Part shown: positions 19,165 to 63,451 of the stretch, piece after piece | How positions within the stretch are numbered: position 1 is the first letter of the stretch | Layout of the letters: every line of letters starts with the position of its first letter | Source of the DNA: Alphaproteobacteria bacterium | GTDB taxonomy: Bacteria > Pseudomonadota > Alphaproteobacteria > UBA9219 | Direction of reading: 5' to 3' | DNA length: 64,000 nt | NCBI GenBank assembly: GCA_033763555.1 | Contig: JANRKK010000045.1 | Location: 2,277-66,276 of the forward strand | The notes under the pieces: generated by a model | Database searches by the model: none | Seen by the model: the letters and a program-made list of their open reading frames with translations, nothing else | What the model was told of the DNA's origin: nothing | Translations under genes and position numbers: made by a program

Positions 19165-20145
19165 GTGAGCAAGCCTATGGCCACTTCCAAAAAACGTGAC
19201 ATCGCACAGGATATCGCCAAGGCGATCGGCATTCTCGCTGTGGTCTACGCCCATGTTCTGTGGGGCCTGGTCAGTTCCTCTATTTTTGCAGATGGCAATC
19301 CGTTGCATTTCATCGATATGGGACTGCAAATCTACACGATGCCGCTTTTCTTCCTGCTGGCCGGGTATAACGCCCCATCCAGCCTCAAGCGTTCTACGCC
19401 TGCTGAATTTATCCGCAAACGCGCCAGTATGCTGATACCTGTTTATCTGATCTGGTCGGTGGTACAGGGCGGCATGAAATACGCGCTGAGCGGACAGGTG
19501 AATGATCCTGTAACGCTTCAGGATCTTTTAGCTATTCCCTACAAACCCATTGGCCAGTTTTGGTTTCTCTATGCTCTCTTGATTTACCATATCGCTACGG
19601 CGTTGCTTTACCGTCGGCCATGGGTTCTTGCATCTCTTGCCATTGCAGCCTTTCTGGCCAATCCATGGCTGGAGGATTTCCCCCGGGATTATTGTTACAG
19701 CGGTATTTTTTATGTTCTCGGATTCCTTCTGGCAAACAAAGATCTTCCGTCCATCAAGGCAAAACACATCGCCCCTGCCCTTGGGGTTGCGGTTATTGTG
19801 TATGCCTGCGGATTGGCCATGAATTGGAGTTATGGCCTGGACTCGCGCAATCTCTTGCTGTTGCCTGCAACATTATCCGGCATTGGGCTGGTTATGTTTT
19901 TATCTCAAAAATTGTCGGCATCGTCTGCAGGACCTGCTCTGGCCTATGTCGGCCGCGCATCACTCGCCATCTATGTGCTGCATGTCATTTGCTTTGCCGG
20001 ATGGCGCGCTTTTATACTGAAGCTTGGTGTGACGGAGGCCTATGTGCATCTCGTAACAGGTACGCTGGTTGGCCTCGGCGTACCTCTACTACTTTATAGT
20101 GTTCTAGGGCGCTTTAAGCTTCGTCGTTACGCCTATCTTGGCTGA
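19165..20145 (+). CDS. Acyltransferase family 3 membrane protein
   Basis: 326 aa, polytopic, with N-terminal AKAIGILAVVYAHVLWG. It is 45 nt downstream of fabD. Confidence 0.75.
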   Translation: MSKPMATSKKRDIAQDIAKAIGILAVVYAHVLWGLVSSSIFADGNPLHFIDMGLQIYTMPLFFLLAGYNAPSSLKRSTPAEFIRKRASMLIPVYLIWSVVQGGMKYALSGQVNDPVTLQDLLAIPYKPIGQFWFLYALLIYHIATALLYRRPWVLASLAIAAFLANPWLEDFPRDYCYSGIFYVLGFLLANKDLPSIKAKHIAPALGVAVIVYACGLAMNWSYGLDSRNLLLLPATLSGIGLVMFLSQKLSASSAGPALAYVGRASLAIYVLHVICFAGWRAFILKLGVTEAYVHLVTGTLVGLGVPLLLYSVLGRFKLRRYAYLG

Positions 20146-21654
20146 AGCCGGATCTTTCGGCATTTCAGCCTGCCAGTGCCGTGCGACCAATACACCGCTG
20201 AGCAGAAGCCACAACCCCCATCCAGCAGGTGACAGTGCTTCTTCCTGAAAAATGCCATTCACGAAAAGAATAGCCAGCGCCAGCGGAATAAGCGTGAGGC
20301 GCGGTTCGGAAACAAAATACAGGCTCGATTTCCACACGGCTTTCCAGAGATACCAGTAGAAAAAGAAAAGCACGATGGTACCGATACCCATTTGATAGAA
20401 CGCCACGCCAAAAGCGCTTTCAAATCCGAAGTTGGCGCCGAAATTCTGGAAGAATTGAAGGCCCGAGGTTGTTTCATTCAACCCCTTGCTGGACAGGGTA
20501 CCACCGACGCCGATGCCGTGGCCTGCGGGATTCATCAGAAATCCTTTGATGCCGCCAAGGAAGCCCATAACGTGGAAATCCCGGGTCGACAGGCCGTAGG
20601 CTATCCCCACCACAGCATAACCGATCATACAGGCCAGCAGTGCCGTCAAAACCCAGGCGCGATTGCGCGTCCGTATATAAAGCATGTAAAGCCCAAAACA
20701 GACGAGCAGCATAATAAGAGGGCCTTTGGCACCCACAAGAGTTGCAATGACGAAACAGAAGAAGGCCAGAAAATAAAAGCGGTATATGAAACAAACGATG
20801 CAACAAAAAACCAGATCATAGGCATAGGAAATAGGATGAAAGATAGGGCCGTTCGGACGCAAAATACGGAAATCCAGTCCCATCATGCCTGATAGATTCA
20901 GATAATTTCCACTGCTGTGATTGATGACGTCCATGACGTTATCAAACACTTCGGTTTCGGCGGAAGCCGTTGAGAATTTCAGGCGCATAAAATCGGCGGC
21001 ATTAAAGAAGGAATACAAATCATACGTCCAAAAAAACTCCACCAGCCCCCATGTCACAAGAATAAGGGCCAGAAGACGGATGATATTGATGACGTAACCA
21101 AGCCTCAGCCGGAAACCGAATGCCAAGCCGATTGCCAGCAGCAATCCGCCCGTAAGATAGACGCGCACATAGACAAGAACGCTTGACAGGTTTACCTGTA
21201 AAAGTCCCAAAACGGCATAAAATCCGACGACAACAAAGAAGAAAAACATCCAGCGCAGAAGCGGCAGATTTTCCTTTGGAAAGCGGCCGCGCAGTTTTAG
21301 CCAGACCGGAAAGCATATCAACGATGTAAAGAAAATATTCAGAAAGCCTGTCCCCAGAAGCAGACGAAAATCGTCAAAATCTTGGATATTGGCGGCTGCT
21401 AAGGCAATAAAAGCATTCTGAAGAAAAAAACATCCCATAAGCAAGGCAAAAGAGACTTCGGCACTGAGCAGGACAGCCAGAAGTGTCATGGCAATCAGCC
21501 ATATGAATCCAGGTGATCCGAATCCCGTTCCCAAAACGGCATGTACCCCAAGGATTAGCAAAGCCACGGTCATAGCCATGACGGCCTGAATCAGACTCTG
21601 CCGTTGGTCCATGGTGACGGCGTTAATTGTTTTGAATTGCGTGCGCAATGTCAT
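20104..21654 (-). CDS. Polytopic membrane protein, candidate Wzy-type polysaccharide polymerase
   Basis: 516 aa with more than 12 TM segments and a large loop. It is the first gene of an overlapping string (GH5 and UXS upstream, with ATGA/4-nt overlaps). Family assignment rests on topology and context only. Confidence 0.5.
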   Translation of the reverse strand: MTLRTQFKTINAVTMDQRQSLIQAVMAMTVALLILGVHAVLGTGFGSPGFIWLIAMTLLAVLLSAEVSFALLMGCFFLQNAFIALAAANIQDFDDFRLLLGTGFLNIFFTSLICFPVWLKLRGRFPKENLPLLRWMFFFFVVVGFYAVLGLLQVNLSSVLVYVRVYLTGGLLLAIGLAFGFRLRLGYVINIIRLLALILVTWGLVEFFWTYDLYSFFNAADFMRLKFSTASAETEVFDNVMDVINHSSGNYLNLSGMMGLDFRILRPNGPIFHPISYAYDLVFCCIVCFIYRFYFLAFFCFVIATLVGAKGPLIMLLVCFGLYMLYIRTRNRAWVLTALLACMIGYAVVGIAYGLSTRDFHVMGFLGGIKGFLMNPAGHGIGVGGTLSSKGLNETTSGLQFFQNFGANFGFESAFGVAFYQMGIGTIVLFFFYWYLWKAVWKSSLYFVSEPRLTLIPLALAILFVNGIFQEEALSPAGWGLWLLLSGVLVARHWQAEMPKDPASAKIGVTTKLKAP

Positions 21655-25621: not shown

Positions 25622-26326
25622 TTAATTTTTTCTACACAAATAGATATTAGCTGTCTGCGGGACTGATCCAGAGGCAGCAAGTCCATAGCTGGCAACCCAA
25701 AAACCGTTGATTTCCTGTAGGCCAGCAAGAGGTCTTTCCGACATAAATTGCAACGTCCACCCGCTCGCACAAGTGCATCCAGACGTACCTCCGGCAATAG
25801 CAGGAAAAATAGGTGTTCCCATTGTTGTGTTTGTACCATTTGAATTATTTCTCGCTTCACACCACCCCGCTACGGCGCCCGGTGGCATGAATCCGTATTG
25901 AGACCAACCATTGGCTGTGCCGTCTGTGCATGCTTCAAGTTTGTTAGTAAATGTTCCCGCTGGCCCAGGAACGGCACGTATTCCGGCCCACCCGCCGCCG
26001 CCGCAGCCACTACTTTTTGTGCCTCCAGACCATAAAAATATTTGGTCATCGATATCGACCGTACCCTTAACCGAAAATCTAGGATCAAAGCCAGGAGGCC
26101 GAGTTTCCCCAGCAACAGGAAGCCCCACACTAACCTGACCGTTTGGAAATACTTGAATTGCCGTGGTTCCTCCCGCCCCAATGGGGAGTGTTTGCCCAGA
26201 CTGAGAATTCAATCCATCCGCAGCCATCGCCGATGCAGACGCAATACATAGAGCAGCAGCAAGACTGAGCGCGCTTAAGCGGCATCGAGCCGAACCGGAC
26301 TTCAAATAAGAAATGGCGTCACGCAT
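25622..26326 (-). CDS. Hypothetical secreted Gly/Cys/Trp-rich protein
   Basis: 234 aa with a signal peptide (LSALSLAAALCIASASAMA), 8 Cys and many Gly-rich stretches. It lies directly 3' of tRNA-Gly, with a long AT-rich upstream region (26327-26675). Confidence 0.5.
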   Translation of the reverse strand: MRDAISYLKSGSARCRLSALSLAAALCIASASAMAADGLNSQSGQTLPIGAGGTTAIQVFPNGQVSVGLPVAGETRPPGFDPRFSVKGTVDIDDQIFLWSGGTKSSGCGGGGWAGIRAVPGPAGTFTNKLEACTDGTANGWSQYGFMPPGAVAGWCEARNNSNGTNTTMGTPIFPAIAGGTSGCTCASGWTLQFMSERPLAGLQEINGFWVASYGLAASGSVPQTANIYLCRKN

Positions 26327-26675: not shown

Positions 26676-26897
26676 ATGAAGGATAAAGCCGTGGTGGTTG
26701 AGCTTTCCCCTATTGCCTATATGGCCTTATGCGGCCTTGTGCAGGACGCCTTGCAGCACCCGAGCGATGCAACGCCTCTTTTGAATCGCGTTGCGCAGGA
26801 GCTCGCCAATGCGACGGCCAACGGTATGCTGCCGTCTGATCTTCTGGAACAGCCTGAGCGTATCGAAGCCCTGCGCCGCGCTGGCATGGCTGCCTAA
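26676..26897 (+). CDS. Small hypothetical protein (73 aa)
   Basis: The ORF has native-like GC and codon usage. No recognisable domain is present. Confidence 0.35.
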   Translation: MKDKAVVVELSPIAYMALCGLVQDALQHPSDATPLLNRVAQELANATANGMLPSDLLEQPERIEALRRAGMAA

Positions 26898-26972: not shown

Positions 26973-27278
26973 ATGACCAATCTTTTTGATACAGGACTAC
27001 TGTGGATCCGCACCCATGTGACGGGATGGGTTTTGCTTGGGCTGTTCGGACAAGGTCTTTTTATGATGCGCTTTATCTATCAGTGGATCGCCAGCGAACG
27101 CGCCAAAAAAAGCATCATGCCGGAAGCCTTTTGGTATTTCAGTCTGGCAGGCGGCATTATCGTATTCACCTATGCCGTTCACCGCGAGGATATTGTATTC
27201 ATTCTGGGACAGGGCCTAGGCGTTTTTATTTATCTGCGGAATATTTATTTCATCTGGCGGCATAAACGCCATGCCTGA
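26973..27278 (+). CDS. Small membrane protein with a lipid-A-biosynthesis N-terminal (LAB_N)-like domain
   Basis: 101 aa with 3 TM helices (WIRTHVTGWVLLGLFGQGLFMMRFIYQWIASERAKKS...). It overlaps the start of the GT39 gene by 8 nt. Such small proteins typically accompany ArnT-like transferases. Confidence 0.65.
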   Translation: MTNLFDTGLLWIRTHVTGWVLLGLFGQGLFMMRFIYQWIASERAKKSIMPEAFWYFSLAGGIIVFTYAVHREDIVFILGQGLGVFIYLRNIYFIWRHKRHA

Positions 27279-28968
27279 ACGGGTGGCATCCCTGCCCGCG
27301 GTTTTCCTTGCTCCCGGCAAAAAACGCCTGAGCGTCTGGGCGTATATCTTCCTTTTTTTCCTGTGTGTAGCATTTTATGCGCCGGGATTTGTCTCTCTGC
27401 CACCAACGGACCGTGACGAGTCATCCTTCGCGCAATCCTCCAAGCAGATGATTGAGAGCAACAATTACGTCGATATAAGGATTCAAGAGAAACCGCGTTA
27501 CAAGAAGCCCATCGGCATTTACTGGCTGCAAGCCTCAAGCGTCAAACTCCTGAACCCGGATCATTTGAAGGAAATCTGGGCCTACCGCGTACCTTCTTTT
27601 CTGGGCGCGGCCACGGCTGTTCTGATGACGGCAGCGCTGGGTACATTTCTTTTTGGCCCTCTGGCGGGAATACTGGGGGCCATGATGATGGCCGGGTGTG
27701 TTGTGCTGAACGTGGAAGCACGCATGGCCAAGACCGACGCTGCCCTGCTCGGCTGCATCATGGTCATGCAATACGGTCTGGCGAAAGCCTACATAAAACG
27801 CAAAGAGAAATTTGCAACTTCCCTTGCCTTCTGGACAGCGCTTGGTCTGGGCGTTCTGATCAAGGGGCCTATCATTCTTCTGGTGTTATTCTCGACTTTG
27901 CTCTGGCTGTGGCTACAGGAAAGAAAATTAAAATGGTTTCTGACGCTCCGTCCCGCTATGGGCCTGCCTTATGCACTGGCACTGATTATTCCATGGTTCA
28001 CACTTATGATTTTGGGAAGCCAGGGACAATTTGTTGATCAATCCATCGGCCATGATTTTATTGCCAAAATATGGAACGGCGAATTCCGCGGCATCATACC
28101 GCCGGGCGTGCATCTACTGGCCCTGCCTGTGGTTTTTGCGCCTTTTGCGCTTTTCGCCTTTTTGGCGTTGCCGGATATATGGCGCCATCGGCACGAACCC
28201 GCCATCCGGTTCTGTTTGGGCTGGATCATACCCGCATGGATTGTCTTTGAATTATCGCTGACCAAACTTCCCCATTATGTCATGCCACTTTATCCCGCGA
28301 TTGCCATGCTCGCAGCAAAATTCCTGAGCGATGGTTTTCCTGCGCTGACAAAAAATATAAAACCTTGGTTTCCAGCCCTTGTCATGGGTTTGTGGCTGAT
28401 GATCTGCACCGGGCTTCTGCTGGCCTTGATCTATATGCCTTATGCCCTCGATCAGGCGTGGAACGCATGGCAGATTGGCGCCAGCGCGTTGTTTTTCCTC
28501 AGCCTGAATGCAGCCCTGTTTTTTTTAATGCAGCGGACACCCAGCCGGAGTGTTATTGCCCTGACAATCGGCAGTCTGATTTTCATGGGCGTTACTTTTG
28601 GCATTACCCTGCCCCGCCTGCAGCATATATGGCTCTCCAAGCAGGTGGCCCATATCGCGGAGCGCACCAAGCCATGCGAGAAACCAGAAATCATCACCGC
28701 AACCTATGATGAGCCGAGCCTGGTTTTTCTGGCCGGAACAGAAACGCAATTTATTGCCAGCGGCGCGCAGGCGGCTTTTGCCGTTTGGCTTAATCCCTGC
28801 CGTATGGCCTTGATCGACGGCAATCATAAGCAGCTGTTTTTGGATGTGTTCGCCAAGGCACGTTACAAACCTATTGAGGTTGGCCATGTTGAAGGACTGA
28901 ACACGGGCCGCGGCCGCAAGGTTTCCCTGACACTTTACACCTTGCCTATGGAAGCGAAACGCCAATGA
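27271..28968 (+). CDS. Glycosyltransferase family 39/83 (ArnT/PMT-like undecaprenyl-phosphate-sugar:lipid A glycosyltransferase)
   Basis: 565 aa with about 12 TM helices and an ArnT-like N-terminus (PPTDRDESSFAQSSKQMIESNNYVDIRIQEKPRYKKPIGIYWLQA). Confidence 0.8.
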   Translation: MPERVASLPAVFLAPGKKRLSVWAYIFLFFLCVAFYAPGFVSLPPTDRDESSFAQSSKQMIESNNYVDIRIQEKPRYKKPIGIYWLQASSVKLLNPDHLKEIWAYRVPSFLGAATAVLMTAALGTFLFGPLAGILGAMMMAGCVVLNVEARMAKTDAALLGCIMVMQYGLAKAYIKRKEKFATSLAFWTALGLGVLIKGPIILLVLFSTLLWLWLQERKLKWFLTLRPAMGLPYALALIIPWFTLMILGSQGQFVDQSIGHDFIAKIWNGEFRGIIPPGVHLLALPVVFAPFALFAFLALPDIWRHRHEPAIRFCLGWIIPAWIVFELSLTKLPHYVMPLYPAIAMLAAKFLSDGFPALTKNIKPWFPALVMGLWLMICTGLLLALIYMPYALDQAWNAWQIGASALFFLSLNAALFFLMQRTPSRSVIALTIGSLIFMGVTFGITLPRLQHIWLSKQVAHIAERTKPCEKPEIITATYDEPSLVFLAGTETQFIASGAQAAFAVWLNPCRMALIDGNHKQLFLDVFAKARYKPIEVGHVEGLNTGRGRKVSLTLYTLPMEAKRQ

Positions 28969-29660
28969 CAAAGAAGCATTACATTCTGAGTGGTATTTTT
29001 CTGTTTTTGGCGCTTGAGATTCTTCTGATCACCTTTGCCGACAAGCCCATTTCGCAGGAACTGCGTATCATTGAAGCGCAGAACCCGGGTTTGATCGGTT
29101 TTTTCCGTAGCTACACCGATCTTGGGAAATCCAAATGGTATCTCTGGCCTTCTGGCATAGCCATTTTGGTATTTTCTGCCCTGCTGCACATGAAGCTCTT
29201 TTCACGTCAGGCACGAATGAAGCTCAAGCGGATAGGTGAAAAGCTTTTATTCTTCTTTCTTTGTATCGCGGCTTCGGGAATTATCACGGATATTCTCAAG
29301 CGGCTTATCGGCCGCGCGCGCCCGGTAAAGCTGGAGCAGGACGGTCTCTATGGGTTTTTTCCCGTTGTTTTTGAATCCCGTTTCCATTCCATGCCGTCCG
29401 GCCATGCCACAACGGCCTTTGCTCTGGCTTTCGCGCTCGCGGTGCTGCTCCCACGCTGGCGCGTTGCATTCTTTGCTCTAGGCGTTTTTCTGGCAGTCAG
29501 CCGCATTATGGTTAATGCGCATTTTCTTTCGGATGTGCTGGCAGGCGGCGTGATCGCCTACCTCACCACCCTGCTGATGCAGCGGCTGGACGCATACCAT
29601 GGGATGTTTCTTGCGCGTGATAGTATTTTTCCCATTGACCGGAAATCCCGCCGTCGTTAA
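28965..29660 (+). CDS. PAP2-family membrane phosphatase (lipid A phosphatase LpxE/LpxF-like or PgpB-like)
   Basis: The PAP2 motifs K...RARP, PSGH and SRIMVNAHFLSD are present. It overlaps GT39 by 4 nt. Confidence 0.8.
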   Translation: MTKKHYILSGIFLFLALEILLITFADKPISQELRIIEAQNPGLIGFFRSYTDLGKSKWYLWPSGIAILVFSALLHMKLFSRQARMKLKRIGEKLLFFFLCIAASGIITDILKRLIGRARPVKLEQDGLYGFFPVVFESRFHSMPSGHATTAFALAFALAVLLPRWRVAFFALGVFLAVSRIMVNAHFLSDVLAGGVIAYLTTLLMQRLDAYHGMFLARDSIFPIDRKSRRR

Positions 29661-29669
29661 ATTTCCTGC

Positions 29670-30158
29670 ATGCAGAAAGCCAAGGCAAACCGTACACCCA
29701 ACTGGGTGCGCAATTTACGCGCCCTGATGGATGAAAAAGGCTACAACCCGCGCAGCCTGTCACTAAAAGCGGGCCTGAGCCCCACGGCGGTACGGGACAT
29801 GCTGGAAGGCCGCTCACGTTTCCCCCGGTATGATACGGCGAAAGCCCTGGCGGATGCGCTGGACACAACACCAGCCTTTCTGATGGGTGATGAAAAGATG
29901 GCCCATGAAATGAATGCCGCAGGCCAGGGCCTGGTTGAAGACATGGAGCTGCTGACTGAAATTATTGCGCGGCTTCGTGAGGTAACAGAGGAATTGAACC
30001 GCAAATTATCGCCGCGCGATTTCGCGGCCATGACGACAACGATCTATAAGCGCATCCAGGCTAGCGACGAACGTAAAGGCAAAATCGGCTCGATACGGCC
30101 GCAAATTCACGATTTACTTGATTATGAGATGTTACGGCAAAGAAGTGCAAAGCGCTGA
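29670..30158 (+). CDS. XRE-family helix-turn-helix transcriptional regulator with a C-terminal helical domain
   Basis: An N-terminal HTH_XRE-like segment (WVRNLRALMDEKGYNPRSLSLKAGLSPTAVRDMLEGRSRFPRYDTAKALADALDTTPAFL) sits in a 162 aa protein. Confidence 0.6.
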   Translation: MQKAKANRTPNWVRNLRALMDEKGYNPRSLSLKAGLSPTAVRDMLEGRSRFPRYDTAKALADALDTTPAFLMGDEKMAHEMNAAGQGLVEDMELLTEIIARLREVTEELNRKLSPRDFAAMTTTIYKRIQASDERKGKIGSIRPQIHDLLDYEMLRQRSAKR

Positions 30159-30204
30159 TTAAGCATAAATATATTTGAAGTCATTAAACATAAGGTGGTG
30201 GGTT

Positions 30205-30573
30205 ATGCATGACCAAGGCGATAAAATCGTAACGCTGGCGCGTGAGATGTTGCGCTCCGAGCCTTTTATGGAACCGGAATCCTCGCTTTCCCGGATTTCG
30301 CTGTCTTTCAAGGTTTTATGCTTTGCTACCATGCTGGCAGCCTTTGGCAGCAGTGGCGTCACCCTTCTGGCCAGCGAAGCCTGGCGGCCCCTCAACCGCT
30401 ATGAACGCACCGAACTGCAGGCTCTGTTTTATTATGCCGCCCTCAAAAAAGGGATACATGAAAAAACCTTGCGCAGCGATGTGAGAGACAAGTTTGGCTT
30501 CCATGATCTGGACGATATGACACCTTACGATTACAGCATCACACGCCGTTATCTTCAGGATATCGCGCGCTGA
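30205..30573 (+). CDS. Hypothetical protein (123 aa) with one hydrophobic segment
   Basis: The ORF track gives 30175..30573; the start was chosen at MHDQGDK. No recognisable domain. Confidence 0.45.
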   Translation: MHDQGDKIVTLAREMLRSEPFMEPESSLSRISLSFKVLCFATMLAAFGSSGVTLLASEAWRPLNRYERTELQALFYYAALKKGIHEKTLRSDVRDKFGFHDLDDMTPYDYSITRRYLQDIAR

Positions 30574-30849
30574 ATATTCCTGTATGTAAAATTACAGAAT
30601 GATCTTGATATGGGATAAATCCCATTGTAAGGAGGCAAAAGGCTTGTTTGTGTGAGTGCTAATGCCTCCGATTGCCTTGCATCGCTCCAGATTTTGTTCG
30701 ATCACGCTGAGCCGCCGCCAGCGGCCCGTCAGCTTTGATGATTTGGCGACGATCTTGGAGCTCGATCTCTTGATGGGAGATAAAAAAGGCTTTCATCGGC
30801 ATCTTGCAATCGCACTGGAAGATGCCTGGCGGCAGGGCAATAATTACCG

Positions 30850-31617
30850 TTAGATACTTTTTTTGGGAAGCCGTATTGACGGCTTAACAGAAGGCCTCAT
30901 AGGAGTTGGCTTACTTTGACGGCCTCCGTATTTTTCTTTCAGTTTTGCAAGTGATGAACCGCCCGGCAATGTACGAACGCCATTGTGAAGCGCTACATTT
31001 AATGCATTCCAGTTTCCTTCAACAGTAATCCATTTTCCTTTCTCGTTTTTATCCCAAATGACATTATCAGCAGGCTTTGGCCATCTTTTTTCCTTTTTAT
31101 GGAATAGCTCCATCCACCTCCAAATAAGGGCTTCATTGAGATTAGGACGAAATCCTCGATCGCGCATAAATTTGGACAAGGAAGAACCTCCGGGAAGGCC
31201 CCGAAAACCTCGCCTCAAATCAAGACTAATTGAAGCCCAGCTGCCTGGCACTTGAATCCACTGTCCCTTTGTATTTTTATCCCATACCACTTTGTCGGTG
31301 ATTCCGGGTAATCGGTCCTCTTTTTCTCGAAATAATTTTATCCTGCGCTCAACAATTTCTTCTGAAAGAAGGTCACATAACCCATATTCAGATTTTATCT
31401 GATTTAAAGATGAACCACCAAGAAGTCCACCGCGCCCTGTAACAAGAGCCTGATCTATAGAACTCCATGTCCCCGGAATTTGATGCCAAACACCTGCTGA
31501 ATTTTTATCCCAGATAATTTTATCCCGCGCGGAGGGCCATTTACCTTCCATCTCATGGAACAATTGAATCCACTGGACGATTTGCTTCTCTGTTAAAGGC
31601 CGAGCGGGATATGACAT
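30850..31617 (-). CDS. Hypothetical protein made of three tandem ~85-aa repeats (LFxE..W..DKN..G.W...PG.W....AL..G.RGLPGGSSL)
   Basis: 255 aa. The three repeats align by eye with conserved W/G positions and the motifs WDKN and LPGGSSL. GC is ~45%, well below the neighbours. Confidence 0.6.
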   Translation of the reverse strand: MSYPARPLTEKQIVQWIQLFHEMEGKWPSARDKIIWDKNSAGVWHQIPGTWSSIDQALVTGRGGLLGGSSLNQIKSEYGLCDLLSEEIVERRIKLFREKEDRLPGITDKVVWDKNTKGQWIQVPGSWASISLDLRRGFRGLPGGSSLSKFMRDRGFRPNLNEALIWRWMELFHKKEKRWPKPADNVIWDKNEKGKWITVEGNWNALNVALHNGVRTLPGGSSLAKLKEKYGGRQSKPTPMRPSVKPSIRLPKKSI

Positions 31618-31733
31618 AGCCGTCTTTCAAATATGATTTTCAAATACGCGGGTATTCTAAACCCAACTGCTGAAAGTAATAAATTTAACCAATAGATGTT
31701 TTTGCTTAATTCAAAAGAGGTTAGAAAGCGATC

Positions 31734-34356: not shown

Positions 34357-34856
34357 TAGGAAGCCCTCTTGTTCTTGGGATTACGGGCGGCGAAATCAAT
34401 CGTCTTCGGGTTCTGCGCGGCGTGCGGATGTTCCTTGCCCGCATAGACCTTGAGGAAGGTCATCTGACGGCGGCCCAGCGGCCCGCGCGGCATCATACGT
34501 TCAACAGCCTTGGTAATAACCCGTTCCGGATGCGCGCCCGCCAAAATCTTGGCGCGGGTGCGGCTCTTAATCCCGCCGGGATAGCCTGTGTGATAGAAAA
34601 ATTCCTTTTCCTCAGCCTTCTTGCCCGTCATGCGAATTTTTTCGGCATTGATGACAATGACATTGTCACCGCAATCAACCGACGGTGTGAAGGTCGCGCG
34701 ATGCTTGCCGCGCAGAATGGTGGCAATCCCTGCCGCCAGACGGCCGAGAATGACGCCATCGGCATCGATCAGAACCCAGTTCTTTTTGACGTCCTGATGA
34801 CGCAGCTCAAAGCTCTTCGTCTGGACACTTGGTTTAACGCGAATTTTTCCGGCCAT
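34356..34856 (-). CDS. rplM: 50S ribosomal protein L13
   Basis: The start was moved to the internal Met preceded by the RBS AGGGAGA ([42 protein letters not shown]...). The ORF-track start at 34931 is too far upstream. Confidence 0.92.
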
Positions 34857-35066
34857 GTTGATCTCCCTAAACCCGCCTGTGGCGGAGCCGGGTTGATACA
34901 AATTGAGGGAGTCGATGTCAATAAAAATCAAGCAGGACAGCGATAAAATATATGGGGTATTATGATACCCTATATTTAACTATAAGTCTCATCTAATTGA
35001 CAGCCTTATATGTACAGGCATAGCATTCATGAGATTTCATCACACCAAATAAAGAGGGCTTCAATT

Positions 35067-35660
35067 ATGGAATTTACGCAAAATCCAACCCCCACTGATA
35101 TGGCTGCGTTTGTAAAAGAAGCCGTAGACGCAAAAACGAACACTGACTCTCCAGAACGGCAAGCACAATTGGCGGCTAAAGCCCAAGAGCATGCTGCGCT
35201 AGAAGCAAAAAAAGAACCATTTCGAGTTGCCGCGCGGGAAGTTGCCGAAACCATTCTTGGCGGTCTTCAAGCCCTCCCCCTCAATAACCGTGTGATAGAA
35301 GAAAAAAGAATTGTGCTAAATTTTCATATTGTTCCAAATCTCTTTGCGGTGACTTTGGGATCAAGCGACGCAGCTCTTCAAAAGCCTAAAGAAACTGGGA
35401 ATCTGGTAAGCTTCCTAATTCCCGGATGGGAAGGTCGTGTAACTGGCGATCACAGCTGGAACACCCGGTATATGGGATTTAAGTTTGACTGCGTGTATGA
35501 CGACGACAGAAATTTACAACATATTACCGTTAGACGGCATGAAGGATTTGAATCGGCTTTTGGCGACAGCTTAGGTAAATTTTCGTATTCTCCCGAAAGA
35601 CCTGCCGAGATGTACAGAGAACTTGCTGGGCTGTTTACGCGCTACGAATGGAACCGCTAA
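35067..35660 (+). CDS. Hypothetical protein, low-GC orphan
   Basis: 197 aa starting at MEFTQNPTPTD after the RBS AAAGAGGG. GC is ~46%. No recognisable domain. It is flanked by the rplM promoter region and a convergent GT2 gene. Confidence 0.5.
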   Translation: MEFTQNPTPTDMAAFVKEAVDAKTNTDSPERQAQLAAKAQEHAALEAKKEPFRVAAREVAETILGGLQALPLNNRVIEEKRIVLNFHIVPNLFAVTLGSSDAALQKPKETGNLVSFLIPGWEGRVTGDHSWNTRYMGFKFDCVYDDDRNLQHITVRRHEGFESAFGDSLGKFSYSPERPAEMYRELAGLFTRYEWNR

Positions 35661-35669
35661 GCTCAACAA

Positions 35670-36518
35670 TCAGCCTGCGATAATTTTTAGATAAGTCCGC
35701 ACCCAAATGGCCAGATCGAGCAGCCATAGAAATGGCTTTGGATATTCCTTGCCGAAATTCTTGTGGAAATAGCGGATAAAGCCGCGCGCCTTGTGTTTTT
35801 CAACGAAGGCTCTTGTTGCCCTGCTCGTGCTGCCAATATGCGTCACGACCACATCCGGGGCAAAATAAATCTCGCCTCCGGCACAGCGGAGACGCAGACA
35901 TAAGTCCAAATCCTCAACATGGAGGAAATAACCTTCATCGAATCCTGTGATTTTCCAAAAATCCTCGCGTGTCAGGAACATGAACGCGCCGCTGATGGCG
36001 GGTATGGGCGTTAAAGCGGATGGAATAGGTTCTTCATTAAAATTCAGCCGCGCCTTCGGGAAGAAATGATGGAGGCACAGCGCCTCGATAAAAGCCGTCA
36101 TGGGCGTCAACAAAGCGCGGCGGCAACCGCGTTGATCGCTGCCATCCTCATCCAGCAGCCGCGCACCGATCATAAAAGGCCGTTTTAAGCCTGCCGCATG
36201 GGCTTGAAGACGGGTCAAAGCATCCGGTAGCAACAGGCTGTCAGGATTAAGAAAAAGAAGGTGGGTGCCCCCGGCTGCCTTTGCGCCGAGATTACACCCC
36301 CGGCTGAAGCCAACATTGCCATGGCCTGTGACAAAGCGCAGGCGGCTTTCCTGCTCCGCCATGGCTTGCAGCTGAGCAGTAATTTCAGGGGGATTGCCGT
36401 TATCGACGAGGCAGAGCTCCACAGGCTCTGTCTGGGCCAACACACTGGCAATGGCCTGAAACAGCACAGGACCCGTGTAATAGCTGACCATGACGACGGA
36501 GGTTATGGGGGGCGGCAT
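35670..36518 (-). CDS. Glycosyltransferase family 2 (rhamnosyltransferase-like)
   Basis: N-terminus SVVMVSYYTGPVLFQAIASVLAQTEPVELCLVDNGNPPE with GT-A features. It is divergent from rfbCBDA. Confidence 0.75.
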   Translation of the reverse strand: MPPPITSVVMVSYYTGPVLFQAIASVLAQTEPVELCLVDNGNPPEITAQLQAMAEQESRLRFVTGHGNVGFSRGCNLGAKAAGGTHLLFLNPDSLLLPDALTRLQAHAAGLKRPFMIGARLLDEDGSDQRGCRRALLTPMTAFIEALCLHHFFPKARLNFNEEPIPSALTPIPAISGAFMFLTREDFWKITGFDEGYFLHVEDLDLCLRLRCAGGEIYFAPDVVVTHIGSTSRATRAFVEKHKARGFIRYFHKNFGKEYPKPFLWLLDLAIWVRTYLKIIAG

Positions 36519-55238: not shown

Positions 55239-56593
55239 TGAGCGATACATCCAAAACACCCTCGGAACGGCGCATACCGCTGGCCCTGCGCTTCAAGCGC
55301 ATCTTGCCGCGCAGCCTGTTCGGCCGGACATTACTCATCATCGTCTTGCCGACCCTGATCACGCTGGCGGCGGCTACTTATGTTTTCTTCAATCGCCATT
55401 GGTACACAGTGACCAACCGCATGACTTACGCGGTTGCAGGCGATGTCGCGGTGGTTGTCGACCTGATGCAGAAAAGCTCGAACGCTGAAAGCGTGGCTGC
55501 CGTGGTACGACTGGCATCGGAGAAAATGGATTTATTTGTCAGTTTTGCACCCGCCACAACCCTGCCCTCAACGGCACGCGAGACGCTCAACCCTCTGCGC
55601 AATATGCTGCGCCACGCGCTGAATGATCGCCTCTCTTACCCTTTCAACATCGATATGCGGCATGCACCGGAAATGATCGCGATTGAGGTCGGCGCGCCAG
55701 AGGGCGTCTACACCATCCTGTCGCCGGAACGCCGGGTTTACACGCCAACAACGGAAGTTTTCATTGCCTGGATGACGGGAAGCTCAATCCTCCTGTCGGC
55801 CATTGCGCTGCTTTTCATGCGCAACCAGATAAGGCCCATCCGGCGGCTGGCCGATGCGGCCGAGGCCATTGGTAAAGGCCGCGATGTGCCCTGGTTCAAG
55901 CTGGAAGGCGCAGCCGAAGTGCGGCAGGCGGGCGCGGCGCTGATGGTCATGCGCGACCGCCTGAAACGCCAGATTACACAGCGCACGGCCATGCTGGCAG
56001 GTGTTTCGCACGATCTGCGGACACCACTGACACGCATGAAGCTGCAATTGGAAATGATGCCGGAATCCGACGCCAAAAAAGAATTCGCGGCGGATATTGC
56101 CGATATGGAAACCATGCTGGAAGCCTATCTCGCCTTTGCCCGCGGCGAGGAAGCCGAACCCGCGATGGAAACCGATCTGGCTGAACTGTTGAACGAAGTT
56201 ACCACGGCCGCCAAACGGCAGAACCCGCGTATCCAAATCAACGTGCCAGAGGGTGCAAAGGTGACATTACGGCGCAACGCCATGAAACGTTGCCTCGCCA
56301 ACCTCATTGGCAATGCCGCGCGGTATGGCAAGCAGGCGCAGGTGAATGTAGCCCTGCGTGACCATGCGGTTGATATTGTGATTGATGATGATGGCCCCGG
56401 CATCGCCCCTGCGCAGCGTGAGGATGTTTTTCGGCCTTTCACGCGGCTTGAGGAATCCCGCAACCCAGCCACAGGCGGTGTTGGGCTCGGCTTGACGATT
56501 GCGCGCGACATCGCACGCTTCCATGGCGGCGATGTTGTTCTGGAGAATAGTCCACTTGGCGGATTACGGGCACGGGTTTGGCTACCAGTATAA
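55238..56593 (+). CDS. EnvZ-like sensor histidine kinase
   Basis: The start overlaps the regulator stop (ATGA). Two TM helices, a HAMP region, the H-box AGVSHDLRTPLTRM and the G-box GLGLTIARDIARFHGG are present. Confidence 0.88.
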   Translation: MSDTSKTPSERRIPLALRFKRILPRSLFGRTLLIIVLPTLITLAAATYVFFNRHWYTVTNRMTYAVAGDVAVVVDLMQKSSNAESVAAVVRLASEKMDLFVSFAPATTLPSTARETLNPLRNMLRHALNDRLSYPFNIDMRHAPEMIAIEVGAPEGVYTILSPERRVYTPTTEVFIAWMTGSSILLSAIALLFMRNQIRPIRRLADAAEAIGKGRDVPWFKLEGAAEVRQAGAALMVMRDRLKRQITQRTAMLAGVSHDLRTPLTRMKLQLEMMPESDAKKEFAADIADMETMLEAYLAFARGEEAEPAMETDLAELLNEVTTAAKRQNPRIQINVPEGAKVTLRRNAMKRCLANLIGNAARYGKQAQVNVALRDHAVDIVIDDDGPGIAPAQREDVFRPFTRLEESRNPATGGVGLGLTIARDIARFHGGDVVLENSPLGGLRARVWLPV

Positions 56594-56598
56594 TTTTC

Positions 56599-57120
56599 AT
56601 GGAACAAAAAATATTTTGTATCGATTTTGAAGCTTCGGCGTTAGGCCCTCGTGGCTATCCAATTGAAGTTGGAGTGGCAGATGTGCAAACTGGCGAGACT
56701 CAAGCATGGCTTATTAAACCGACCACCGAATGGCTTCACGAAAGAATTTGGTCAGAGGCATCAGAAACTATTCATGGAATTTCACAAAACCAGCTCTTAA
56801 ATGATGGTCAAGACCCAAAGATTATTATACCTGAAGTCGTCAATATATGTTCCGATGGTATCGTCCTTTCAGATAATGTGAAAAGCGATTCCTCATGGTT
56901 CCAAACCTTGTGTGATGCCATTGAACTTCCGCGCATGCCGTTTCAGATACAATCTTTTCAAGACGCAGCATGCGAAATAGCTGGAAGGCACCATTCAGAC
57001 CCAACCCATAAGATAGAAAAGGCCATAGAGCAGGCTGTCGAAAAGTTCCCCAACCCACACAGAGCGGGACCAGACGCCAGAAGAAACGCTGAAGTTATTC
57101 GTTTGTTACTCGGGGCATAA
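56599..57120 (+). CDS. Small DEDDh (DnaQ-like) 3'-5' exonuclease-domain protein, low-GC
   Basis: 174 aa starting at MEQKIFCIDFEAS (Exo I D-x-E), with HGISQNQLL (Exo II region) and HRAGPDA (Exo III H-x4-D). GC is ~43%. Confidence 0.55.
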   Translation: MEQKIFCIDFEASALGPRGYPIEVGVADVQTGETQAWLIKPTTEWLHERIWSEASETIHGISQNQLLNDGQDPKIIIPEVVNICSDGIVLSDNVKSDSSWFQTLCDAIELPRMPFQIQSFQDAACEIAGRHHSDPTHKIEKAIEQAVEKFPNPHRAGPDARRNAEVIRLLLGA

Positions 57121-58537: not shown

Positions 58538-59407
58538 TTAACGGATGGAGGGTGTCGCAGAACGCCCTAAAACTGAACGGCCCGCGGGAGAGGTATAGAT
58601 TTGCGCTTCAAAATTCGGGCGAGCATTTTTAGCCATGTCAGCTTGTAACCACATGGTCGCATGCGGCAAATCCGCCATACTGGAAATGACGATAGACGCA
58701 CCTTCGCCCAGCAAAACTTTAGCCTGTGCAGGCTTGTCCTCATAAAAGGTGGCGGCAACCGTACCAATAACGGGCGTATCAGGACGGCCAGCTTTTGCCT
58801 TTTGAACCCCCGAAGCACTGTCTTCAACAATGATCGTATCTTTTGGATTCCATCCAAGAGCACCGAAAGTTTCATCATATTTATTGGGATGGCCATAACC
58901 ACTGCGACGACGTGGTCCGGCAGGAAATATTTCAGCAAGCCTGGCATTTTCAAGTGTTTGCGCATCAACCGCGCAGTCAAGACAGATATCCATGCGTTCA
59001 GCAGGACTTGTGGTTGCCAACGCCATATTTTCGGGCCCAAACATATTACGAATTTTCATCAGCGCGGGCGTAGCCCCAGGAATAGCCTTAAGAAGTGCCT
59101 TAAAACGGCTGTTAGTTTCGAGGGTAACCAGCTCTGCGTAGGAAACGGCTACATCAACATCTTCAGGAAGCTTGTAGGCCTTTCTGATTTGATCGCGAGG
59201 TAAATTAAAATTTCGTATCAGAGTATCAACAATTCTATCCGTCGATGTCCCCGGATAAGTCCTGTAAATATAATTCTCTGGCAAATCAGCGTCAGGCTTG
59301 TAACGCAAAACCAGGACGCGTCCGCACTCATCCATGACGCGCATTGCAATATGTTCACTATCGATATTGACGCCGTCATTATCGAAGATGATATATTTAT
59401 AACGCAT
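58538..59407 (-). CDS. HAD-superfamily hydrolase (sugar-phosphate phosphatase-like)
   Basis: Motif I IIFDNDGVNIDSE. A later Asp-rich segment is consistent with a HAD core plus cap. Confidence 0.6.
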   Translation of the reverse strand: MRYKYIIFDNDGVNIDSEHIAMRVMDECGRVLVLRYKPDADLPENYIYRTYPGTSTDRIVDTLIRNFNLPRDQIRKAYKLPEDVDVAVSYAELVTLETNSRFKALLKAIPGATPALMKIRNMFGPENMALATTSPAERMDICLDCAVDAQTLENARLAEIFPAGPRRRSGYGHPNKYDETFGALGWNPKDTIIVEDSASGVQKAKAGRPDTPVIGTVAATFYEDKPAQAKVLLGEGASIVISSMADLPHATMWLQADMAKNARPNFEAQIYTSPAGRSVLGRSATPSIR

Positions 59408-62452: not shown

Positions 62453-63451
62453 TCAGGCTACGGCTTCGGTGACGTCGCGCGGTTTCGCGCCGATGGAAAT
62501 CAAATGATAGGCAGCCGTATTGTTGGCGCCACGCAGAATATCCATCAAGGTTGCAGAGGTCAGGTTTTCAACATCCTGCTGCGTCAGGCAGCTTTTTCTC
62601 GCAAACTCGATGGTCAGTCCGGCATTGAAGTTATCGCCCGCACCAACCGTATTATAGACAACAAGATCAAGCGATTTGGCTTCAGCACTGACTTTCTTTG
62701 TATAGGCTTCAGAGCCATGCATGCCTTTGGTAAACACGGCCATGCTGGCGCCCTGAGCCAGCCAGATTTCAGCAACCTGCTTCGGCGTCATGTCCGGATA
62801 GGCCCATGCAATATCCGCATCGCTTGCCTTCATCACATGGGCGATACTGGCCCACTCCAGAACGATCTTACGGTATTGCTCTCTGTCACGGGCAATGGAT
62901 GGTCGCGTGTTCAGATCATAAAACACCAAAGATTCTTGGCGCTGCTTGCGCGCAAACTCTAGCCAGGCAAATCGCGCAGGCTCCATAACCGTTGAGATCG
63001 AACCAAAACAGCAAATCTTTTTATCACCGCCGGTTTCGAGCTTTTGTGGCAAATCTTCAATTTTTGTCATTTGCTCGGCGGTATCACGACCGTAGAAGGA
63101 AAAACTGTTCTCCTGTCCCGGACGAACCGAGACAACGGCCAGCGTTGTATTACGCTCAACCCGTTTAATCGCAGAAGTATCGATTTTAGAATCCTGGAGG
63201 GTCTTAAAAAAACGCTCCCCGAACATATCGTTGGAGAGCGGACCTACAAAACCTACTTTGACATCCATGCCTTCGCGCTTAACGGCCTTAGACGCGCCCA
63301 TGGCGCCATGAAATTGCGAACCGCCGAGCAGCAGACGAAAATCGCCAGACCCCTGGTTCTGTTCCAGAAGATCGGCAACAAACTCCCCACAAAAGAAAAC
63401 CCGAACGGCCATTCGAATTCTTTCCTTCGGTGCCAGACACAAAACCGACAT
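62453..63451 (-). CDS. PfkB-family carbohydrate kinase (fructokinase/ribokinase-like)
   Basis: GAGD motif (NTVGAGDNFNAGLT) and a ribokinase-like fold. The true start may be the internal Met at 63412. Confidence 0.8.
   Translation of the reverse strand: MSVLCLAPKERIRMAVRVFFCGEFVADLLEQNQGSGDFRLLLGGSQFHGAMGASKAVKREGMDVKVGFVGPLSNDMFGERFFKTLQDSKIDTSAIKRVERNTTLAVVSVRPGQENSFSFYGRDTAEQMTKIEDLPQKLETGGDKKICCFGSISTVMEPARFAWLEFARKQRQESLVFYDLNTRPSIARDREQYRKIVLEWASIAHVMKASDADIAWAYPDMTPKQVAEIWLAQGASMAVFTKGMHGSEAYTKKVSAEAKSLDLVVYNTVGAGDNFNAGLTIEFARKSCLTQQDVENLTSATLMDILRGANNTAAYHLISIGAKPRDVTEAVA

Follow-up and report, generated by a model that had tools for sequence, protein, structure and literature searches.

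A supposed foreign islet that probably combines a native regulatory gene trio with one horizontally acquired repeat gene

Gene content of the interval

The 2-kb interval described here lies within a 64-kb stretch of DNA (hereafter the window, meaning the whole stretch analysed) from an uncultured alphaproteobacterial lineage. It is bordered by a cluster of envelope-lipid genes on one side and a polysaccharide deacetylase gene on the other. The features considered are as follows.

26973–27278, plus strand: LAB_N small membrane protein (Pfam LAB_N, 2.6e-32), heading the upstream envelope-lipid cluster
27271–28968, plus strand: ArnT-like (PMT_2) membrane glycosyltransferase (Pfam PMT_2, 1.4e-11)
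28965–29660, plus strand: PAP2 phosphatase, distantly LpxF/LpxE/SepP-like (Pfam PAP2, 1.5e-26)
29670–30158, plus strand: gene A, a native, conserved 162-aa XRE-family regulator with an HTH at aa 15–72 and an uncharacterised C-terminal domain
30205–30573, plus strand: gene B, a 122-aa single-pass membrane protein with a TM segment at about aa 31–57
30656–30853, plus strand: gene C, a 65-aa basic protein (63 aa if the start is the ATG at 30662)
30850–31617, minus strand: gene D, a 255-aa basic protein with three repeats of 76 aa ahead of a basic tail, probably horizontally acquired as judged by GC3 and absence in relatives
30854–31733, no strand: probable inserted segment of about 880 bp, made up of D and a 116-nt AT-rich upstream region and delimited against an empty site in a related locus, L021
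31734–32579, minus strand: YibQ-like divergent polysaccharide deacetylase, a native gene beyond the insertion (Pfam Polysacc_deac_2, 1.1e-80)

The original prediction had described genes A to D as a small foreign islet, set off from the preceding lipid A genes by an immediate change in GC content and codon usage. All four ORFs are real and lie at or near the coordinates that it gave. The predicted XRE domain of A was recognised by Pfam as a Cro/C1-type HTH, followed by about 90 residues without a family. The single hydrophobic segment of B was found as described; its length is 122 aa and not 123, with an ATG start at 30205 preceded by the ribosome-binding site AAGGTGG. What had been listed as a possible 65-aa ORF is the real, conserved gene C, with orthologues in related loci. 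D indeed consists of three tandem repeats bearing the motifs WDKN, GxW and LPGGSSL; their period is 76 aa (228 nt) instead of the proposed 85 aa. Its low GC and its lack of a family assignment were both borne out, the latter by searches of Pfam, PHROGs, PADLOC and NCBIfam and, by sequence, of the PDB. The compositional boundary directly past the lipid A genes was not found.

Protein A passes the Pfam gathering thresholds of three HTH families: HTH_26 (30.6 bits, cut-off 22; E 4e-7), HTH_3 (29.3 bits, cut-off 23; 9e-7) and HTH_31 (27.8 bits, cut-off 27; 3e-6). Its C-terminal 90 residues correspond to no known domain for dimerisation or sensing. The N-terminal helix of protein B, DRGEKIVxLAREMLR, is conserved, and so is a three-helix bundle at its C-terminus (aa 65–121); the structural model comprises a TM helix and this bundle. 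The fold of the C-terminal domain was compared with the Red-beta C-terminal domain and a NinB-like three-helix bundle. Protein C has the conserved core PVS(F/V)DDLAxxLExDLLxG...F..xL..AL, and its orthologues in related loci are 38–62% identical. Neither B nor C has a match in Pfam, PHROGs, PADLOC or NCBIfam.

Composition and gene order of A, B and C

The GC3 values of A, B and C (0.595, 0.593 and 0.606, respectively) are native when set against the 0.569 ± 0.066 of 40 long ORFs of the window. Genes A and B are neighbours in each of the 18 related loci examined, and the same gene order is kept in them; D occurs in none. The PAP2 gene is found directly upstream of A in 15 of the 17 related loci with upstream sequence. 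More than 257 homologues of A were found; among the 120 listed, lengths are 141–192 aa, mostly 157–169 aa, and identities are 58–81%. Across the relatives, A is 49–81% identical, which equals or exceeds the conservation of the flanking enzymes. A is a core, vertically inherited gene and not a phage gene. Conservation in relatives together with native GC, which the original prediction had named as evidence against the islet, is therefore seen for A, B and C.

According to a rival explanation, the whole interval is one mobile islet: a prophage remnant, a toxin–antitoxin pair of A (antitoxin) and B (membrane toxin), or defence cargo under the control of A. Layouts with an XRE gene ahead of a gene for a small membrane protein are common in toxin–antitoxin-like modules and prophages, D is foreign, and A has matches among the PHROGs of phage repressors (2e-11) and to the PADLOC capH model (2e-8). 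These matches run through the HTH only. No recognisable toxin domain was detected in B with the four libraries, its model consisting of a TM helix and a three-helix bundle, and B and C have no PHROG or PADLOC counterpart. A CapH/CapP-type defence regulator was likewise rejected, as the capH match is confined to the HTH and no peptidase or defence gene is adjacent to A. Neither the patchy distribution nor the foreign composition expected of a toxin–antitoxin module or mobile islet is seen for A-B-C, given their native GC3, the 49–81% identity of A across the lineage and the same gene order in 18 of 18 loci, tied to the same operon.

The neighbourhood was searched with PADLOC on A to D, where B, C and D gave no match, and with Pfam on ten long ORFs within 10 kb on either side. 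Among the latter, eight are Nramp, GH5, epimerases, rmlC/B/D-like enzymes and GT2, and two have no match; no integrase, transposase, phage or defence gene was found among them. The genes rplM/rpsI and PIMT, recognised from translations, are also present in the neighbourhood. Across PHROG matches, flanking repeats and the nearby ORFs scanned, signs of a prophage were limited to the PHROG matches of A's HTH, and no flanking repeats were seen. The mobile-islet explanation is already largely refuted by synteny, and we regard it as extremely improbable.

A candidate operator upstream of gene C

The region between B and C contains one feature of regulatory appearance.

30604–30633, plus strand: promoter-like site of C, with TTGATA at 30604–30609, a 17-nt spacer and the TA-rich −10-like element TAAGGA at 30627–30632

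The spacer is filled by the 14-bp palindrome TGGGATAAATCCCA (30611–30624). The exact palindrome occurs once in the 64-kb window, at this promoter-like site, with no copy upstream of the LAB_N operon. The layout of a TTGA −35 element, the palindrome and a TA-rich element precedes the C orthologue in at least eight related loci (L009, L011, L013, L014, L015, L019, L020 and L021); in a further locus, L018, the palindrome is present without TTGA. The −10-like element of C is weak, and a generic sigma-70 scan did not call a promoter here.

We infer that the palindrome is a candidate operator for A. A would act on it as an XRE-type dimeric repressor and so control C. The palindrome could also be bound by a protein other than A, for example C itself. 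B may be a membrane-tethered partner of A that couples the state of the envelope to A activity; its three-helix bundle would then be a small protein-interaction module.

Relation of A-B-C to the upstream envelope-lipid cluster

The three genes upstream of A are tightly packed. LAB_N and the glycosyltransferase gene overlap by 8 nt, the glycosyltransferase and PAP2 genes overlap by 4 nt, and the PAP2 stop lies 9 nt before A. In related loci where it was detected, LAB_N is syntenic and 55–74% identical. The identity of the glycosyltransferase in relatives is 35–54%, the value of 35% coming from a contig-truncated 80-aa fragment in L015. Scores of the upstream enzymes are far below the NCBIfam cut-offs for ArnT (51.6 bits against 567), LpxF (26.5 against 400) and LpxE (18.2 against 177), and the SepP match of the PAP2 protein is likewise far under its cut-off. 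As far as the sequences go, these genes can be assigned to the superfamilies PMT_2, PAP2 and LAB_N; the term "lipid A" would rest on family matches below threshold.

The gap of 9 nt between PAP2 and A is found in the window and in L003, L020 and L021, which suggests co-transcription. In the explanation that we prefer, A-B-C form a native, vertically inherited regulatory module at the 3′ end of the LAB_N/ArnT-like/PAP2 operon of this lineage. A and B are also found without the PAP2 cluster, in L016 and L017, so the link to the lipid A genes may be positional only. A second explanation builds on this observation: A-B-C would be conserved but functionally independent of the LAB_N, glycosyltransferase and PAP2 genes and would regulate only C or distant targets. 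The restriction of the palindrome, within the window, to the promoter-like site of C agrees with it, as do the gaps between A and B and between B and C, which leave room for separate promoters. It accounts poorly for the linkage of PAP2 to A in 15 of 17 loci although protein identity in the lineage drops to 35–50%, and for the short gap suggestive of co-transcription. We consider functional independence possible, if on the doubtful side, and retain the module at the end of the operon as the preferred reading, in which any link to lipid A remodelling is putative.

Gene D as a probable single-gene insertion

Gene D has a GC content of 0.436 and, at 0.363, the lowest GC3 in the window; a GC content as low is seen in 0.6% of 768-nt windows. 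It is absent from all 18 related loci. In L020, the closest relative, the contig ends inside C. In L021 the site is empty: C and the YibQ-like gene are directly convergent, with stop codons about 11 nt apart. This empty site indicates that D arrived alone, which also argues against a single mobile islet. Genes convergent with B in two other loci (L002 and L003) are not D-like. No convincing target-site duplications, direct repeats or terminal inverted repeats flank D, and neither a second copy of D nor a nuclease partner was found in the 64 kb. A tblastn search of the whole window with nuclease queries found no nuclease genes. The 90% identity cluster of D has a single member.

We consider D to be, as one half of a probable two-part explanation, a single-gene horizontal insertion at the point where C and the YibQ-like gene converge. 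Because the relatives lack D, its position among envelope genes is an accident of insertion. The weak match of the C-terminal domain of A to PF18780 (E 0.0097), a repeat family discussed below, had offered a possible link between A and D; it was set aside, since no relative that has retained A possesses D.

Repeat anatomy and predicted structure of D

The repeats were delimited by self-alignment and HMM domain calls.

31369–31596, minus strand: D repeat 1, aa 8–83
31141–31368, minus strand: D repeat 2, aa 84–159
30913–31140, minus strand: D repeat 3, aa 160–235, the best modelled (pLDDT 85–95)

Together they span aa 8–235 and are followed by a 20-aa basic tail. Shifting D on itself by 76 aa yields 68 identities in 179 positions. 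At the DNA level Tandem Repeats Finder reported nothing, and the repetition is visible only in the protein and as one 23-nt motif at 228-nt spacing. The AF2 model of D is of medium quality (mean pLDDT 76, pTM 0.44), with repeat 2 poorly modelled. Each repeat has three helices; a beta hairpin could also be resolved, in repeat 3 alone. The variable positions 39, 43, 46 and 47 lie on one face of helix 2. D is strongly basic (pI 10.1, net charge +18), and the pI values of four relatives are 9.7–11.8. Reading of the N-terminus revealed no signal peptide or TM segment. Searches of the PDB by phmmer with D and with a profile of 73 repeat units gave chance-level matches only (chalcone isomerase and the TRADD death domain; E at least 0.27).

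A family of repeat arrays, some fused to nucleases

A search for homologues of the repeat protein revealed a large family: clustering at 50% identity leaves 3,648 representatives, and single proteins carry as many as 14 repeats. Representatives named by source come mainly from Planctomycetota. None of the four libraries searched (Pfam, NCBIfam, PHROGs and PADLOC) contains the family. A scan of viral contigs with D alone found no relatives, and tblastn against GenBank phages gave no match. The closest relative of D (P0328) is 41.5% identical.

Arrays of 2–14 repeats either stand alone or lie C-terminal to an Mrr nuclease, an Mrr nuclease with an SF2 helicase, or a GIY-YIG-like domain. One relative (P0066) consists of an Mrr_cat_2 domain (1.6e-31) and two repeats. 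Another (P0059) has a weak GIY-YIG match followed by three repeats and is encoded on a 127-kb phage-like contig together with YqaJ, RecT, DnaN and DUF3310 genes. In each of eight long relatives, Mrr_cat_2, ResIII/DEAD and Helicase_C domains are followed by 5–14 repeats. For four of these, PADLOC aligned the N-terminal 610–630 residues with positions 11–652 of a 1646-position Type IIG/ISP restriction-methyltransferase model (E 1e-122 to 1e-152), and the repeats occupy the place of the remainder of the model. Since the arrays take the place that the methyltransferase and target-recognition domains have in Type ISP enzymes, they are most likely a DNA-recognition module. D itself is most likely a stand-alone DNA-binding protein without catalytic activity, to judge by the fusions in its family, its basic charge and the variable face of helix 2.

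A different ligand (RNA, a protein partner or an envelope polysaccharide) was also considered. The envelope genes around D, among them the YibQ-like deacetylase, might favour a polysaccharide. With relatives lacking D, this neighbourhood is accidental, and a strongly basic protein without recognisable signal peptide or TM segment, whose repeats are elsewhere fused to cytoplasmic DNA enzymes (Mrr nuclease with SF2 translocase, arranged in a Type ISP-like manner), fits such a ligand badly. Binding of something other than DNA therefore seems quite unlikely to us.

The fusions could be read in yet another way, with D as what remains, in decay and with no present function, of a homing or restriction nuclease gene after loss of its catalytic domain. 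Family members that carry Mrr or GIY-YIG-like domains and are found close to transposases or on phage-like contigs are in line with decay, and so are the foreign composition of D, its lack of a nuclease domain or partner and its status as a singleton with a best match of 41.5% identity. The ORF, however, is intact, and near-invariant core residues (W, P, G, L and S-L) are kept in all three repeats, though these are only about 40% identical to each other. Stand-alone arrays are moreover the norm, 183 of 217 sampled family proteins having no extra domain of at least 120 aa, and the 116-nt upstream region is too short for a nuclease remnant. A relic is on balance unlikely, and we keep to D as a stand-alone DNA-binding protein.

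Discussion

Taken as a whole, the interval probably consists of two unrelated things, the native A-B-C module and one foreign gene, D, beside it. The prediction of a single foreign islet holds for D and fails for A, B and C, that is, for three of the four genes. A and B had been viewed as phage-remnant, toxin–antitoxin-like or defence cargo, which is at odds with their native composition, their conserved order and the generic matches of the HTH. For D the view of foreign cargo fares better: the insertion, the foreign composition and the nuclease-linked family agree with it. D itself carries no nuclease domain and has no nuclease partner in the 64 kb. For this genome our result is mostly corrective, as three of the four supposed islet genes are core and one is foreign. 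A-B-C are a tightly conserved trio with a clear candidate operator, placed on an ArnT-like/PAP2 operon, and make envelope-lipid regulation in an uncultured lineage testable.

A more ambitious reading would make the D-type repeats a modular DNA-reading code and, separately, A-B-C an envelope-sensing switch that governs lipid A remodelling in this lineage. With the hypervariable face of helix 2 (39, 43, 46 and 47), each 69–76-aa unit would touch a few base pairs, and arrays of 2–14 units would supply long, evolvable specificities to Mrr-helicase motors, GIY-YIG-like homing nucleases and stand-alone regulators such as D. We think this reading very unlikely. Were it true, bacteria would have in these modular arrays a counterpart to TALE or Myb arrays that none of the four libraries contains. 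If the arrays do read DNA modularly, restriction and homing nucleases would have in them a specificity module of a new type, one that could be considered for engineering.

Comparison with known systems

For gene A, the closest systems are XRE/Cro-CI repressors with an operator in the promoter spacer. Like them, A has a Cro/C1 HTH, and a 14-bp perfect palindrome, the candidate operator, likewise sits in the spacer of C's promoter-like site, flanked by −35-like and −10-like elements, and is kept throughout the lineage. A differs from the phage repressors of this type in its C-terminal 90 residues, which are unlike known dimerisation or sensor domains, and in not being a phage gene.

The long relatives of D resemble Type ISP enzymes such as LlaGI and LlaBIII. 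A passage of PMC3553950 gives the domain order of Type ISP enzymes as Mrr nuclease, helicase, methyltransferase and target-recognition domain. The long relatives have the same N-terminal Mrr nuclease and SF2 translocase, over about 640 model positions and with E down to 1e-152. They differ in carrying 5–14 D-type repeats instead of the methyltransferase/target-recognition half, and no methyltransferase domain was detected in them. D has the repeats only and is therefore not a Type ISP/IIG enzyme.

The helicase-associated domain HA (PF03457) is found as several tandem copies C-terminal to SF2 helicases. The repeats of the D family are arranged in the same way. Like the D units, HA is a short helical domain, and it shares their position and presumed role. 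The title of Mills et al. 2013, as given in the reference list of PMC12191111, refers to DNA binding by the HA domain. None of 73 repeat units matches HA, and the weak HA match of one relative (P0061, E 0.055) lies outside its repeats. The HA structure is missing from the PDB profile search, which gave chance death-domain hits only (E >1).

The homing endonuclease-associated repeat HNH_repeat (PF18780) is, like the D repeat, tandem, mainly helical and attached to selfish or restriction-type nucleases. In both, presumably, a long helix closes with G-x-x-P and is followed by G-(S/T)-W-x-x-A-L. The closest relative of D reaches 26.5 bits against PF18780 (cut-off 26), a score summed over its repeats with no single significant stretch; neither D nor any of 73 family units matches, and one of 15 D-like units does so at E 0.089. 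The two repeats differ in unit length (54 aa in PF18780, 69–76 aa in the D family) and in their nucleases, which in the D family are Mrr and GIY-YIG-like, not HNH. Tandem three-helix DNA-binding repeats, as in Myb R1R2R3 and the double HTH of AraC, are also among the closest known systems with which the D repeats can be compared.

Genes of the interval

The interval 29670-31617 contains four real genes:

29670-30158, plus strand: gene A, 162 aa, Cro/C1-type HTH at aa 15-72
ATG at 30205, plus strand: gene B (SFW62_10080), 122 aa, RBS AAGGTGG before the start
30656-30853, plus strand: gene C, 65 aa, small and basic
30850-31617, minus strand: gene D (SFW62_10090), 255 aa, three tandem repeats

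The HTH of A matched the Pfam families HTH_26 (4e-7), HTH_3 (9e-7) and HTH_31 (3e-6); the approximately 90 residues beyond it are without family match. B comprises a conserved N-terminal helix, a single hydrophobic segment (around aa 31-57) and a conserved C-terminal domain. No match for B, C or D was found in Pfam, PHROGs, PADLOC or NCBIfam, in agreement with the original prediction, in which the repeat protein D was assigned to no family. GC and codon usage had also been said to shift as soon as the lipid A genes end. This is wrong for A, B and C, whose GC3 is 0.593-0.606 against a window value of 0.569 +/- 0.066. D is the sole deviant among the genes compared, with the lowest GC3 of the window and a GC content (0.436) equalled or undercut in only 0.6% of 768-nt windows.

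GC3 of the genes of the interval, their neighbours and the window
A: 0.595
B: 0.593
C: 0.606
D: 0.363 (window minimum)
ArnT-like glycosyltransferase: 0.597
PAP2: 0.573
YibQ-like gene: 0.582
The window's 40 long ORFs: 0.569 +/- 0.066

Other low-GC stretches (0.43-0.45 in 768-nt windows) lie at 34800-35700, 56550-56800, 58800-59250 and 62950-63100, the first including a 216-aa ORF (35010-35660) without Pfam match. A Cys- and Gly-rich 234-aa protein with a signal-peptide-like N-terminus and a low GC3 of 0.40 (25622-26326, minus strand) has no family in Pfam or NCBIfam; it could be another foreign, or a rapidly evolving, secreted protein. Beside a GH5 cellulase-like gene and an epimerase, a 516-aa ORF (20104-21654, minus strand) has no Pfam match at E <= 1e-5.

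A, B and C form a conserved module

Contigs encoding B homologues, together with a scan for B relatives in one genome per GTDB species, yielded 18 related loci from uncultured alphaproteobacterial MAGs, some labelled Rhodospirillaceae and one Bdellovibrionales. A adjoins B in every one of them. Of the 17 loci with upstream sequence, 15 have PAP2 immediately before A (exceptions L016 and L017), and the complete order LAB_N / ArnT-like glycosyltransferase / PAP2 / A / B was found in 10. Across the related loci, identity to the window protein is 49-81% for A, 35-54% for the glycosyltransferase (35% being a truncated fragment) and 36-51% for PAP2. More than 257 A homologues were found; among the 120 matches listed, lengths range from 141 to 192 aa, mostly 157-169 aa. 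C orthologues, which share the core PVS(V/F)DDLAxxLExDLLxG...F..RL..AL, are located after B in at least nine loci. In the window, the LAB_N and glycosyltransferase genes overlap by 8 nt, glycosyltransferase and PAP2 by 4 nt, and PAP2 and A are separated by 9 nt; this tight packing suggests that the genes from LAB_N to A are co-transcribed. We conclude that A-B-C is a core regulatory module, ordinary-looking and uncharacterised, with a clear candidate operator.

Several further observations concern this neighbourhood. A 73-aa ORF without family upstream of LAB_N (26676-26897, plus strand) has counterparts of 46-67% identity in nine of 16 related loci; they are mostly close to the LAB_N cluster, and the one in L017 is directly upstream of A. 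The ORF could be an additional, unannotated gene of this conserved neighbourhood. In L013 (4116-5394) the distance between PAP2 and A is about 1.3 kb, compared to 9-75 nt in other loci, and may represent another insertion in the same operon. The label 'Bdellovibrionales bacterium' of two module relatives, L006 and P0167, may reflect mis-binning or perhaps the earlier classification of Micavibrio-like predators, in which case it would give a clue to the lineage. The C-terminal domain of A (aa 97-128) weakly matched PF18780, HNH_repeat (E 0.0097), as do three A homologues in precomputed matches; probably only a generic helix-plus-proline pattern is recognized.

In an AlphaFold2 model of B, built from 10 sequences (mean pLDDT 74), aa 3-17 form an N-terminal helix and aa 33-59 a long TM helix; aa 65-121 fold into a three-helix bundle that is modelled with confidence (pLDDT 82-93).

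Fold matches of the B model, with the three values reported for each
Sak (DUF1071), 8qe9: 7.9; 3.3 A; 64
Lambda NinB, 1pc6: 7.7; 1.5 A; 58
Red-beta C-terminal domain, 6m9k: 6.8; 1.6 A; 55

In Red-beta, the C-terminal domain is a small bundle for protein interaction, and the titles of its entries name complexes with lambda exonuclease and an SSB peptide. Since small folds of this kind match easily, the matches are taken only as a hint that the soluble domain of B may dock a partner, most obviously A.

A candidate operator upstream of C

The sequence cTTGATA-TGGGATAAATCCCA-TTG-TAAGGA (30604-30633) precedes C. Here a -35-like TTGATA and a TA-rich -10-like hexamer flank a spacer of 17 nt that is occupied by a perfect 14-bp palindrome; a generic sigma-70 scan did not call this promoter-like site. 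Within the 64 kb the exact palindrome is found nowhere else. The same layout was found before the C orthologue in L009, L011, L013, L014, L015, L019, L020 and L021, while in L018 the palindrome is present and TTGA is absent. Repressor and operator are classically arranged in this way, with a palindrome inside a promoter spacer beside an HTH regulator of the dimeric type, and we therefore propose that A may repress C through this candidate operator, although the palindrome could instead be bound by C itself or by another factor.

The half-site TGGGATAAA (30611-30619) is identical to the W-D-K(-N) codons of D at 31048, 31276 and 31504, 228 nt apart. The match is probably coincidental, since the palindrome is kept in relatives that lack D.

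D is a single-gene insertion

No D-like gene was found in any of the 18 related loci. In L021 (B 59% identical), the gene next to C is the convergent one for the YibQ-like deacetylase, and the two stop codons lie about 11 nt apart. In the window the two genes are about 880 bp apart (30854-31733), a distance made up of D and a 116-nt AT-rich upstream stretch. No flanking repeats were found around the inserted segment, and a search of the 64 kb for a nuclease partner of D found none. Neither an integrase nor a transposase was found among the neighbouring ORFs scanned (+/-10 kb). The Pfam scan of this neighbourhood took in ten long ORFs, of which eight gave matches (Nramp, GH5, sugar epimerases, rmlC/B/D-like enzymes and GT2) and two gave none; nearby ribosomal-protein and PIMT genes were identified by reading translations. 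The 90% cluster of D has one member, and its best relative overall, the repeat protein P0328, is 41.5% identical.

D is a single-gene insertion, a horizontally acquired orphan of a large repeat family. The original observation is confirmed in part. The islet interpretation also holds in part: D is foreign, and A-B-C is conserved with native GC3. Neither is a toxin-antitoxin system, prophage remnant or defence island, the possibilities originally suggested.

Just downstream of B or C, relatives carry a different family-less gene each (L001, 8785-9360; L002, 8751-9506, minus strand; L003, 5684-6523, minus strand). Genes seem to have been inserted repeatedly at this end of the module, D being one case.

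The D repeat family

D contains three tandem repeats, as predicted, with a period of 76 aa (228 nt) and not 85 aa; they span aa 8-235, and a basic tail of 20 aa completes the protein. A word-indexed search revealed 67 homologues, about 30-36% identical, with 2-6 units per protein; the unit is 69-76 aa long with the consensus PPLTEEQILAWADAHHERTGKWPTKKSGPIPEAPGETWAAVDAALRRGLRGLPGGSSLAKLLAERRGVRN. The four source-named homologues are all from Planctomycetota (Urbifossiella, Zavarzinella and a 'Planctomycetota bacterium' MAG). A 73-unit profile detected 3,648 cluster representatives (50% clusters) at E <= 1e-3, of which 1,453 reached E <= 1e-30; these proteins contain up to 14 repeats and up to 1,678 aa. 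Stand-alone arrays like D account for 183 of 217 members sampled.

The family is basic (pI 10.1 in D, 9.7-11.8 in four relatives). The model of D (mean pLDDT 76) has three helices per unit, repeats 1 and 3 being better modelled. VWDKDxxGxW is a subfamily-specific insertion common to D and P0328, and forms a beta hairpin in the model of repeat 3. The most variable columns (39, 43, 46 and 47) lie on a single face of helix 2, as would be expected if this were a specificity surface.

Eight of eight long representatives scanned (1,026-1,678 aa) contain Mrr_cat_2, ResIII/DEAD and Helicase_C, then 5-14 repeats to the C-terminus; five more contain the helicase in part, and P0066 combines Mrr_cat_2 with two repeats. 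In a PADLOC scan of four long representatives, the first 610-630 residues matched positions 11-652 of the 1,646-position 'Type IIG restriction enzyme-methyltransferase' model (E 1e-122 to 1e-152). Type ISP enzymes have the domain order Mrr nuclease, helicase, methyltransferase, target-recognition domain (PMC3553950). Together with the N-terminal match, this order indicates that the repeats occupy the place of the methyltransferase and target-recognition domains. Outside the window, P0200, P0231, P0233, P0235, P0260, P0334 and P0335 carry a Type ISP-like Mrr nuclease, an SF2 translocase and 5-14 D-type repeats; a methyltransferase domain was not detected in these seven proteins.

P0059 (L005, 6001-7125; 374 aa) has three D-type repeats and a weak N-terminal GIY-YIG match (E 0.014, below threshold). 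Its 127-kb contig, with same-strand genes, YqaJ, RecT, DnaN and DUF3310, looks like a phage, and the gene like a free-standing homing endonuclease. Another repeat protein, P0010, is encoded among DDE transposases. The search for homologues and their neighbourhoods uncovered a family that none of Pfam, NCBIfam, PHROGs and PADLOC contains and that has links to nucleases of the restriction and homing types. Judging from architecture, charge and weak fold resemblance, the repeat array most likely serves as a module for DNA binding or target recognition, and D as a stand-alone DNA-binding protein. The most interesting lead, located outside the window, is this wider family and its replacing of the methyltransferase/target-recognition module in Type ISP-like enzymes.

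Comparison with known families

D belongs to no PADLOC system, nor is it a Type ISP enzyme. The PF18780 (HNH_repeat) model was matched neither by D nor by the 73 units. P0328 scored 26.5 bits (cut-off 26), reached only by summing weak repeats, and among 15 D-like units taken singly one matched (E 0.089); the D repeats may be homologous to PF18780. The helicase-associated (HA) domain, PF03457, is helical and occurs in tandem copies C-terminal to helicases. It is the closest functional analogue of the D repeats. No sequence match between the two was found. DNA binding by the HA domain is stated in the title of Mills et al. 2013, as cited in PMC12191111.
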